DNA of 64,000 bases, taken from contig JAURQX010000005.1 of assembly GCA_030835905.1 (NCBI GenBank), positions 1,135 through 65,134 of the forward strand, in the 5' to 3' direction. Each line of letters begins with the position of its first letter. Within the stretch, counting starts at the first letter, position 1. This document shows, one piece after another, positions 1,931 through 22,368 of this stretch. Below the pieces are notes generated by a model. The model worked only from the letters and a program-made list of their open reading frames with translations. It was not told the DNA's origin and made no database searches. The position numbers and the translations under genes were made by a program. Origin of the DNA: Alphaproteobacteria bacterium (lineage in GTDB: Bacteria > Pseudomonadota > Alphaproteobacteria > Rickettsiales > UBA1997).

Positions 1931-2006
1931 TGGTGGAGATAAGGAGACTCGAACTCCTGACCCTCTGCTTGCAAAGCAGATGCTCTACCAACTGAGCTAT
2001 ATCCCC
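1931..2006 (-). tRNA. tRNA-Cys (GCA), CCA encoded
   Basis: The reverse complement reads GGGGATATAGCTCAGTTGGTAGAGCATCTGCTTTGCAAGCAGAGGGTCAGGAGTTCGAGTCTCCTTATCTCCACCA. It has a 7-bp acceptor stem, anticodon loop TTGCAAG and a GTTCGAGTC T-arm. Confidence 0.93.
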
Positions 2007-3228: not shown

Positions 3229-3951
3229 ATGGATATTTTAACCTACGAAATTTTCTTTAGCCTAATAACCCTGACTTTCTTAGAGGTAATTCTGGGAATC
3301 GATAATGTTATATTCATTGCAATTGCAATTGCAAAGTTACCAGCAAAAAATCGACAAAAAGCAAGGATTTTTGGTTTATCACTAGCATTGATTATTAGAA
3401 TAATAATGCTATTTACCCTTTCGTGGGTAATGACCCTAACTACACCTCTTTTTTATATAAAAGATACTGCATTTTCTTTTAAAAATTTTTTATTACTTTT
3501 TGGTGGTCTATTTTTAGTTATAAAAAGTTCATGGGAAATTATATCCGATTTATTTCCTAAAAAAATCAATGAAAACCAAAAAGAAATTAACGTTGCAAAA
3601 TCAATGATTGCCGCAATTGTTCAAATTTCTCTGATAGACTTTGTATTTTCTTTTGATTCGGTTATTACTGCAATTGCTATGACATCCAATATTCCGGTTA
3701 TAATTACTGCTGTAGTCATTTCTATGTTCGTGATGTTAGTTGCTTCTGAAAAGGTAAGTTATTTTTTAAGAGAATACCCTTCACTAAAAGTTGTGGCTTT
3801 AGCATTCATATTTTTGGTAGGTGTAATATTAATTGCCGATGGATTAAATATACATATTTCTAAAGGTTATTTATACTTTTCTTTGTTTTTTACAATGGCA
3901 GTGGAGTCTTTAAATATTTTGATTCGCAAAAAACATAAACATCATTTGTAA
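3229..3951 (+). CDS. TerC family integral membrane protein
   Basis: Polytopic membrane protein with the TerC hallmark LEVILGIDNVIFIAI near the N-terminus and a second DSVITA repeat half. Confidence 0.85.
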   Translation: MDILTYEIFFSLITLTFLEVILGIDNVIFIAIAIAKLPAKNRQKARIFGLSLALIIRIIMLFTLSWVMTLTTPLFYIKDTAFSFKNFLLLFGGLFLVIKSSWEIISDLFPKKINENQKEINVAKSMIAAIVQISLIDFVFSFDSVITAIAMTSNIPVIITAVVISMFVMLVASEKVSYFLREYPSLKVVALAFIFLVGVILIADGLNIHISKGYLYFSLFFTMAVESLNILIRKKHKHHL

Positions 3952-19845: not shown

Positions 19846-20269
19846 CATAAAAAATACTTAGTAATTGCAATCGCTAATTTTAACTTTAGATATTTTTCTT
19901 TGGTTTGAAAGTTAGAGGAAAGTCCGGACTCCGTAAGAGAATAGTACCAGTTAAGAGCTGGCAGATTTGTTGTTTTAGCAACAAATTTAGGGCAAGTGTC
20001 ACAGAAAATATACCGCCAAATAATTTTTTGGTAAGGGTGAAAATGCGAGGTAAGAGCTCACACGCTTATATGGTAACATATATTTGGACAAACCCTGCTA
20101 GGAGCAAAACCAAATAGGAATAGTAATTTTAAAGTAACTTTTAAACAAATATCTCTCTTGTATTAGCTATTCGGGTAGGTTGCTTGAGATCGTTAGCGAT
20201 ATCGATCCTAGATGAATGATTGCTTTTAGATTTATTATCTATAAACAGAATCCGGCTTATTTTATAATG
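19846..20269 (+). ncRNA. rnpB: RNase P RNA, bacterial type A (ends approximate, +/-20 nt)
   Basis: Universal elements are present in order: GAGGAAAGTCCGG (19915 onward), ACAGAAA, GGTAAGGGTGAAA, GGTAAGAGC, AACCCTGC..GAGCAAAACCAAATAGG, GGGTAGGTTGCTTGAG, CCTAGATGAATGA, and ACAGAATCCGGCTTAT (20245-20260). P2 pairs gcaatc with gattgc. Confidence 0.92.
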
Positions 20270-20309
20270 TTATTTTGGTCAAATTTACAATAAATTTTGA
20301 CCAAAATAA
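20270..20309 (+). terminator. 17-bp stem hairpin immediately 3' of rnpB
   Basis: ttattttggtcaaattt / aaattttgaccaaaataa with one bulged T and a 5-nt loop, followed by the T-rich tgatttattttt. Confidence 0.55.
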
Positions 20310-20326
20310 TGATTTATTTTTAATAG

Positions 20327-21151
20327 ATGCAGACAACAAATCAAATTCGCAGTAAGTTTCTAGATTATTTTAAGAAAAATAATCATGAAGTTCTACCCTC
20401 CTCTTCCTTAATTCCACATAATGATCCTTCGCTGTTATTTACTAATGCGGGCATGATTCAGTTTAAGAATTATTTTACCGGACTAGAAAAACCAAAATTT
20501 AAAAGAGTTGCTACTTCTCAAAAATGTTTAAGAGCTGGAGGTAAGCATAATGACCTAGATAATGTTGGTCATACTGCAAGACATCATACTTTTTTTGAAA
20601 TGTTAGGAAATTTTTCTTTTGGCGATTATTTTAAGGAGGAAGCTATTTTTTATGCTTGGGAATTCTTAACTAAAGAATTGCAAATCAATCCAAAAAAACT
20701 ATTAGTCACAATTTATCATGATGATTATGAAGCTCAAAAGATATGGCAAGAAATTTCTGGTTTTTCTGAAGAAAAAATCATAAAAATAAAAACTGATGAT
20801 AATTTTTGGTCTATGGGAGATACTGGACCTTGCGGTCCCTGCTCTGAAATTTTTTACGATCATGGTGAAAAAATATTTGGCGGGATTCCTGGGTCAAAAA
20901 ATGAAGATGGCGATAGGTATATCGAAATATGGAATTTGGTTTTTATGCAATATGAAAAACATCAAGATGGCACCAGAACAAAATTACCAAAGCCATCAAT
21001 TGACACCGGAATGGGTCTTGAAAGAATATCTTCGGTAATGCAATCCGTTCATGATAATTATCAAACAGATAGTTTTACTAAAATTATAGATGAAATTGAC
21101 AAAATTTGTCAATCAAAGATTAAAACAAGCTATAAATTAGAGAATATTTAG
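20327..21151 (+). pseudogene. alaS: alanine--tRNA ligase, N-terminal 274-codon fragment only (truncated)
   Basis: [30 protein letters not shown]...[10 protein letters not shown]...[18 protein letters not shown]...[10 protein letters not shown] match the AlaRS catalytic core. Homology ends at ...KTSYK and the ORF stops four codons later (LENI*). Full-length AlaRS is about 870-880 aa. Confidence 0.85.
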
Positions 21152-22368
21152 TATTTCTTAAGCTCCTGATCATCATATTTTATAACTCTTTTTCGGTATT
21201 TTTGTAAAGCTGAATCAGTTAAAATAATAATAGATCCATATGTAAGAGAAAGTATGGAGCCAAACAAAACTGCAATCTTTACCTTATCAAAAACTAATGG
21301 ACTATCTGAAAATGCTAAAGATCCAATAAATAAACTCATTGTAAAGCCGATACCTGTAAAAATTGCAACACCATAAAATTCACCCCATGATGTTCCTCTA
21401 GGTAAAGATGCAAATTTAAATCTAACTGCTAAATAGCTAAGTAATATTACACCAAACTGCTTACCAATAAATAACCCAAGAATTATACCCAAAATAATAG
21501 AGTCTTTGTAAAGAATTGATATATCAAAATCTTCAATTCTTACTCCAGCATTTACAAAGGCAAAAACTGGCAATATTAAAAAGTTAACTGAAGGCGACAA
21601 TCTTCGATCAATATATTCTAGAATTGGAGTGTTACCAACTCTAAGTGGTATAAACATTGCCATTAGAACTCCAGCAATTGTTGCATGAACACCTGATTTT
21701 AAAATGGCTAACCATAAAAATAGGCCACATAGAAGATATGGCCAAACTTTTCTACAGCCATACCTATTAAGTAAAATCAATCCTATAAAAGAAAATGAAG
21801 ATAATAGCAAGAAAGCAACGTTAATTTCTTTAGTGTAAAATAAAGCTATTATTAATATTGCCGCCAGATCATCTAACACAGCCAATGCTACAAGAAAAAT
21901 TTTAGCTGAAGTAGTAATTCTCTTGCCAAACAAGCAAAGCATTCCATATGCAAACGCTATGTCAGTTGCTGTTGGTACAGCAAAACCCTTAAGATAAGAT
22001 GGTTTATTGTGATTAAAAAGATAAAATATAAGAGCAGGCAATATTATGCCACCAATTGCAGCAATTGCAGGTAAGGAAATTTTTGCTTTAGACGAAAGAT
22101 CTCCTTCCAAAACTTCCTTTTTTAACTCTAAGCCAATTAAGAAAAAAAATACCGCCATTAGGCCATCATTAACCCAATCTCGCAGTGATAATTCTTTACT
22201 ATATGCAATAAAGTCAATCTTAATAGGCACTTCTAATGATAAAAACAAAAAGTAAAAATCAGAATCTTTAGAATTTGCAATCATCATTGCAAAAAATGTT
22301 GCAACAATTAAGATAATTCCTGTAGAGGCTTCAAGTTGAAAAAATTTCTTAATGTGATGCTTAATCAT
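21148..22368 (-). CDS. nhaA: Na+/H+ antiporter NhaA
   Basis: [25 protein letters not shown] start and a polytopic membrane profile, 406 aa. Its stop codon overlaps the stop of the alaS fragment. Confidence 0.92.

Follow-up and report, generated by a model that had tools for sequence, protein, structure and literature searches.

Alanyl-tRNA synthetase is very probably encoded by a split gene pair in a Rickettsiales-like alphaproteobacterium

The window, a stretch of 64,000 nucleotides (C24:1135-65134) from the draft assembly G000 (1,247,719 bases in 57 contigs, 87.8% complete, 0.7% contaminated), lists on its forward strand an open reading frame at 20327..21151 that starts with ATG and encodes 274 residues; we call it alaS-alpha. 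Residues 6-265 of its product match positions 1-262 of the 552 positions of the class II AlaRS profile PF01411 (E 1e-123; positions 1-264 in the genome search), and since profile coverage stops near position 262, the product is the AlaRS catalytic core only, as an earlier, sequence-only reading of this DNA had recognized; it is a stand-alone class II core with motifs 1-3 and the first helix past motif 3. Its best relatives among solved structures are bacterial AlaRS (E 1.7e-116), and residues 3-261 align with chain positions 3-270 of the E. coli AlaRS fragment 3HXU. The C-terminal tail with its stop codon (21118..21151, forward strand) is lineage-specific: the product ends in LENI, followed by TAG at 21149-21151. 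The convergent nhaA gene for a Na+/H+ antiporter (21148..22368, reverse strand; PF06965, E 1.9e-132), a neighbour and not a part of the enzyme, has its TAA at 21148-21150 on the opposite strand, so that the two stops have 2 nt in common; this overlap, too, had been read correctly from the letters.

Directly upstream of alaS-alpha lies rnpB, the gene for RNase P RNA (19855..20275, forward strand; RF00010, 226.8 bits), and an inverted repeat with 17-nt arms (20270-20286 and 20293-20309, 94% complementary), probably the rnpB terminator hairpin, separates the 3′ end of rnpB from the start of alaS-alpha. Both rnpB upstream and addA beyond nhaA had been named in the sequence-only reading; the RF00010 match agrees with the former, and a Pfam search finds a UvrD/AddA-type helicase for the latter. 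Promoter and terminator scans of the start regions of alaS-alpha and of its partner gene described below gave no more sites than shuffled sequence.

Comparison of 14 loci that carry an alaS N-half separates old from recent features of this neighbourhood. trpS flanks the N-half in six of them (G000, G001, G002, G008, G012 and G014), and rnpB together with a divergent trpS makes up the conserved 5′ context of alaS-alpha. The 3′ neighbour changes in nearly every genome: nhaA is found there in G000 only, and elsewhere the place is taken by genes for a methyltransferase, CobT, Fe-ADH, PRA-PH, AnmK, an ankyrin protein, a pilin-like protein, a prepilin peptidase or an acyltransferase. Past the last conserved helix, the tails of the 14 N-halves vary in length and sequence. 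Judged from these loci, the alaS/nhaA junction looks like a later rearrangement and the LENI tail like a later change, both peculiar to G000. Because the adjacency to nhaA is peculiar to this genome and the N-halves of relatives have other 3′ neighbours, the emphasis first placed on a cut exactly at the end of nhaA was misplaced. In G012 (L101, G012:C2), two ankyrin-repeat proteins are encoded downstream of alaS-alpha (36-2528 and 3449-3892) and a gene for a MazF-type toxin separates alaS-alpha from trpS; the ankyrin proteins fit a host-associated lifestyle.

The rest of the enzyme is encoded on another contig. In the whole G000 assembly PF01411 matches two places only, the alaS-alpha frame and contig C57 (C57:5997-6875, profile positions 265-550, E 4e-82 in the whole-genome search), in keeping with the earlier remark that no other frame in the window resembles the remainder of AlaRS; the search for an intact alaS that had been proposed thus found none in this 87.8% complete assembly. 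A search had likewise been proposed for a free-standing frame beginning near the RVIADH motif, and C57 supplies it: alaS-beta, at C57:6006-7946, encodes 646 residues from its own ATG, with the N-terminus MKAEYKIIADHLRS, and starts MKAEYKIIADH. It contains PF01411 positions 269-550, tRNA_SAD (E 6.2e-14) and DHHA1 (E 3e-11), and its residues 5-163 align with positions 280-437 of 3HXU. The four AlaRS domains are therefore distributed in G000 over two open reading frames, on C24 and C57, rather than carried by one polypeptide: the helical tRNA-recognition domain with both G3:U70 readers, the editing domain (HxxxH plus CxxxH zinc site) and C-Ala are all present on beta. As C57 measures 22.8 kb and C24 69.7 kb, both halves are internal to their contigs, and the two subunits are separately encoded and unlinked, as in Nanoarchaeota.

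A spacer of 291 nt separates the beta gene from a preceding RNase J-like gene; at its other end the beta gene runs into glmM, and the order RNase J, beta, glmM recurs in six of 13 loci. The spacer (G000:C57:5715-6005) is made up of two dispersed repeats, one palindromic and ~150 nt long, the other ~90 nt long, with copies on at least 15 contigs, several of them at contig ends; such repeats therefore probably break the assembly, and they may be akin to the palindromic elements of Rickettsia. A cut of alaS mediated by these repeats was considered and rejected: three congeners have just 4-27 nt before the beta gene, so the repeats are a late insertion and not the cause of the cut. Also rejected was the idea that the alpha tail ..TSYK and the ..(S/E)YK before IIADH of beta are the relic of an overlap or duplication; the likeness is absent from every congener and is probably coincidence.

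The cut in G000 is common to most of its family. We searched 126 genomes of 17 genera with PF01411, counting second matches from per-genome totals, and found the N-half complete in 84, with the match stopping at profile positions 255-269 and the open frame measuring 260-325 residues (type A); in three more (G087, G018 and G127) the N-half is partial, because it meets a contig end or is broken into pieces. At least two PF01411 matches are present in 83 of the 87 type-A genomes, with a single match in G048, G081, G086 and G120. An N-part ending further on, at 376-391 (type B), occurs in 10 of the 126 genomes, and one full-length match in 14, G044 among them; the alaS of G077 is intact with an insert, and that of G013 appears to be contig-broken. 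The best match is only C-half-like or weak in 11 genomes, and three (G004, G062 and G132) gave no PF01411 match. In 16 other families of the order, represented by one genome each, alaS is a single gene of 865-954 residues. A search of other genomes' contigs with the N-half returned mostly ordinary alphaproteobacterial alaS, because the catalytic core is so conserved.

From 13 type-A relatives we extracted both frames, N-halves of 260-293 and C-halves of 612-677 residues, each with start codon, stop codon and flanking genes. The N-halves lie inside contigs except that of G001, which starts 640 nt from a contig end, and the C-halves are uninterrupted in 12 of the 13. In G008 the beta frame (L119, G008:C5 ~2105-2110) has a single in-frame stop after codon 169 with the rest intact, which could stem from faulty sequencing or from a recent nonsense mutation. 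The halves share a contig in G012, 24 kb apart, and in G017, 9 kb apart. The N-half of G018 is spread over two contigs (profile positions 1-39 at G018:C43:8698-8814 and positions 38-260 at G018:C96:4844-5506), which may be an assembly problem or a further break. G044, with 3% contamination, holds a split pair (N-half at G044:C16:12883-13656) and in addition a full-length alaS match (G044:C175:376-2016) that starts 376 nt from the end of a short contig in an open frame of only 690 residues; the intact copy is probably bin contamination.

Our tree of AlaRS (35 rows, halves concatenated, 886 columns, IQ-TREE quick search under LG+C20) places all 13 type-A rows in one clade with SH-aLRT support of 100, so the fission is old, and indicates that the type-A cut arose once, in the ancestor of 10 genera (g1, g4, g6, g8, g10, g12, g14, g15, g16 and g17); the tree is that of the gene itself, with the genus codes as the sole independent check on it. 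Intact alaS follows recA in six of 10 outgroup loci (L004, L005, L006, L008, L009 and L013), and in all family loci that were examined recA is absent from beside either half and from beside the family's intact alaS.

The type-A cut falls in a variable loop between the ..DNY.xDxF..II.. helix past motif 3 and the conserved SHRVIADHLRS segment; with alpha aligned to 3-270 of 3HXU and beta to 280-437, it lies at about 270-279. Alignments of the N-halves and C-halves reveal no added docking extension at the new termini: alpha ends at most about 11 residues past the last conserved helix, and beta starts five residues before the conserved IADH. Joining of the two products by a split intein or by intron trans-splicing was considered and set aside, as the termini at the cut are short and an Rfam search of both break points, with E up to 1, gave no intron and no other family.

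Both halves are intact, single-copy in the assembly and under purifying selection. Neither G000 half has an internal stop or a frameshift. All 14 aligned N-halves (A1, mean column identity 72%) have the catalytic motifs without any change, and in the 13 aligned C-halves (A2, 54%) N27, D125, H300, H304, C401 and H405 are invariant; H300, H304, C401 and H405 are the editing ligands of beta, and N27 and D125 fall, by offset, within one position of E. coli Asn303 and Asp400, the readers of G3:U70. Pairwise dN/dS ranges over 0.03-0.07 in the N-halves and over 0.11-0.24 in the C-halves (13 pairs; dS undefined for the N-halves of G010 and G012) and is 0.07-0.17 against the closest relative, values that are rough because dS is saturated (0.8-2.6, or undefined). 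The window also carries the substrate: ARAGORN finds a tRNA-Ala(UGC) at 1931..2006 on the reverse strand, and the acceptor stem, read from the sequence, has G3:U70 and A73.

To examine how the halves might fit, we modelled alpha together with residues 1-195 of beta, each entered as an alignment. The alpha-beta ipSAE was 0.89 in three runs and 0.00 in all three controls. Of 157 solved complexes 116 attain this mark, and of 215 mismatched pairs two do; as structures of intact AlaRS are already solved, the score may reflect model memory, and it speaks for likeness and not for binding. The runs had at least 64% of contacts in common and a partner pLDDT of at least 76, and the predicted interface corresponds to the native interdomain packing: it involves residues 245-265 and 25-29/64-89 on the alpha side and residues 1-23 and 29-70 on the beta side.

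We consider it very probable that alaS is in this organism a genuinely split gene, with the alpha subunit encoded in the window and the beta subunit on C57. Alpha would be a 274-residue alanine-activating catalytic core, and beta a 646-residue subunit that combines the tRNA-recognition domain and its two G3:U70 readers with the editing domain and C-Ala. The two would assemble non-covalently, the last helix and motif-2 region of alpha packing, in the model, on the first helices of beta; such packing would rebuild the normal AlaRS active site and acceptor-stem reader, and by analogy with the nanoarchaeal enzyme the heteromer alone would charge tRNA-Ala. The type-A fission would be a single old event in the ancestor of the 10 genera, to which the nhaA junction and the LENI tail were added later. 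Engineered fragments of E. coli AlaRS are in line with this dependence: 368N, the fragment of 368 residues, is described as inactive in charging, residues 369-442 as needed, and 442N as the minimal active form (as cited in PMC11392972), so that alpha, which corresponds to about residues 1-270, should need beta. The sequence-only reading had left four options; the split gene is borne out by the half on C57, and a gene remnant, a recent pseudogenisation and an assembly chimera are countered by the lack of an intact copy in this assembly, by the 84 relatives with the same N-half and by the dN/dS of 0.07-0.17.

A further explanation would keep both genes alive and separate their products: beta would act on its own as an AlaX-like factor, with C-Ala, that binds tRNA-Ala and edits in trans, and alpha would be an alanine-adenylating enzyme that meets beta only transiently or serves another acceptor. 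The complete editing site and C-Ala in beta, the unlinked genes with their different contexts and the lack of a docking extension at the cut would suit such a division of labour. However, the assembly has no other AlaRS to charge tRNA-Ala, both G3:U70 readers are in beta while the active site is in alpha, and the predicted interface is the native interdomain one. Taken together, the two parts of this explanation receive little weight from us.

Somewhat less probable still is a gene remnant, that is, a rearrangement that left two dead fragments while an intact alaS sits in the 12% of the genome that is missing from the assembly. A draft of 57 contigs with a completeness of 87.8% leaves room for such a copy, and G044 does have an intact copy next to its split pair; but that genome is 3% contaminated and its intact copy is on a short contig, with the match 376 nt from the end. 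The other 86 type-A genomes show no intact copy beside the split pair among the matches listed, and they include G014, G012, G021 and G097, whose completeness is 97-99%; purifying selection on both halves with invariant key residues does not suit dead fragments. Relaxed selection, disabling mutations and an intact copy elsewhere in the assembly, the marks of a pseudogene, were not found, dN/dS being 0.03-0.24.

That the cut is an artefact, a chimera joined at ~21137-21148 that artificially shortened a normal alaS, we regard as very improbable. The genome is a metagenome-assembled draft, and a contig that spans the junction comes from the probable source run only. This run, one of the estuary metagenomes in which the stretch occurs, yields a 2768-nt contig over 20600-21700 with no differences, and a contig from another study covers 21016-21166, also without difference, yet reaches only 18 nt past the TAG, below our 31-letter rule. 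Four runs were compared, as contigs; two of them (X2 and X4) lacked cover for parts of 21081-21300 and are not evidence either way. Independent read support for the exact alaS/nhaA junction is thin. With the contig of the other study ending so soon after the TAG, the case against a chimera rests mainly on relatives: the N-halves of 84 other assemblies end in the same loop, and the missing part is a separate frame with its own start inside a 22.8-kb contig. That alaS recently became a pseudogene, in a bacterium that depends on a host and imports the activity or does without it, would suit a small (1.25 Mb), AT-rich genome of a Rickettsiales-like group, reduced symbionts being known to lose parts of aminoacyl-tRNA synthetases, but is hardly credible for a cut common to 10 genera, with dN/dS far below 1 and no frameshift or internal stop in either G000 half.

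Besides this old cut, the family has a second one. The type-B cut falls in a second variable loop, just before FSGxxAFxLYDTYGFPLDLT; residues 5-372 of the G005 N-half align with positions 5-384 of 3HXU, and the cut corresponds to about E. coli 385-392. In several intact or type-A proteins the same loop carries in-frame inserts of ~25-100 residues: G010, G012, G014 and G077 have them, as do two genomes from other families, G231 (901 aa) and G310 (1017 aa). The loop is an insertion hot spot. On the AlaRS tree the four type-B rows occupy three places, each beside an intact congener: G015 with G089 (support 100), G005 and G020 with G077 (99), and G022 with G007 (98). Forcing the four rows together costs 724.9 log-likelihood units (AU p 1.4e-55), the group having been named after the tree was seen, and in the three events the halves lie in differing gene contexts. 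Our tree and loci thus suggest that the type-B cut arose at least three times independently within the family.

Outside the family we sampled 400 genomes, evenly over the 39 families of the order, and checked 10 that combine two matches with a low best score, leaving out about 20 other odd rows. Contig breaks account for four of the 10 (G142, G171, G397 and G317), intact frames with an insert for three (G190, G231 and G310), and G394 is frameshifted. The other two, G245 and G268 (family f23, genus g105), are true type-B splits, in which the halves are adjacent and co-oriented with 1-1.5 kb between them: in G245 (L148, G245:C9, 1468-4135) a 322-aa frame stands between, and in G268 (L149/L152, G268:C4) frames of 289 and 147 aa. 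The 322-aa frame, the one intervening frame that was scanned, has no Pfam match. The arrangement may represent an early stage of fission by insertion, and four further genomes of genus g105 display the same score pattern. It is about an even question whether alaS has been, in this Rickettsiales-like lineage, a hot spot of repeated fission, cut at least five times into working subunits at two insertion-tolerant surface loops; the tally behind that proposal, and of the same standing, would comprise one ancient type-A event, three recent and dispersed type-B events, and one type-B event with adjacent halves in another family.

AlaRS is described as the one synthetase with a four-domain, one-chain prototype across biology and Nanoarchaeum as the lone split (PMC10036535), and in the full-text literature covered, which leaves subscription-only papers aside, a split AlaRS is described for Nanoarchaeota only. 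In N. equitans both subunits are reported to be required for G3:U70-specific charging (PMC11392972). The present enzyme resembles nanoarchaeal AlaRS-alpha/AlaRS-beta in having two subunits, both of which we infer to be needed for charging, and differs in being bacterial-type and in occurring in Alphaproteobacteria. It differs also in the place of the cut. N. equitans alpha is described as similar to E. coli 368N and as holding the Asn reader, with an LYDSHG-type motif in beta (PMC11392972; PMC10036535); on this description the nanoarchaeal cut runs through the tRNA-recognition domain and leaves the Asn reader to alpha and the Asp motif to beta, and it therefore lies in the type-B segment and not at the type-A site. 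In type A, by contrast, both readers are in beta, as in G000, and the partition of Asn to alpha and Asp to beta is found only in the type-B relatives, whose cut passes between the same two readers as the nanoarchaeal one, so far as the published description places the latter. New are the second place of fission, the finding that cuts arose there more than once, its nearness to the nanoarchaeal cut, and the arrangement with adjacent halves.

Other aminoacyl-tRNA synthetases with separately encoded polypeptides are the two-subunit LeuRS of Aquifex aeolicus and the alpha2beta2 GlyRS, which belong to differing enzyme families and have differing cut sites. A closer comparison is offered by the engineered E. 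coli fragments (3HXU and related entries): a type-B alpha corresponds to about residues 1-390 and a type-A alpha is shorter, about 1-270, and the E. coli fragments are laboratory truncations without a partner, whereas the genomes described here retain the rest of the enzyme in a second conserved gene. The type-A and type-B pairs are thus natural, evolved counterparts of the classic AlaRS fragments: in most of a bacterial family alaS is cut exactly where the catalytic core meets the tRNA-recognition domain, and relatives have their cut at a second site. If our reading is correct, type A would be a natural test of whether a bare catalytic core can work with recognition, editing and C-Ala supplied in trans by another subunit, and type B would converge on the segment cut in Nanoarchaeota. 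Such pairs allow tests of how catalysis is coupled, in trans, with editing and with recognition of the acceptor stem, of how essential multidomain genes survive fission, and of whether permissive loops predict where fission occurs. For annotation, short alaS genes of this kind should not be called pseudogenes, and estimates of genome completeness should expect two alaS genes. The alaS of G394, a closed 1.6-Mb genome of another family, is broken at one locus (G394:C1:1131650-1133297) by several stops or frameshifts, and is a pseudogene or a sequencing error.
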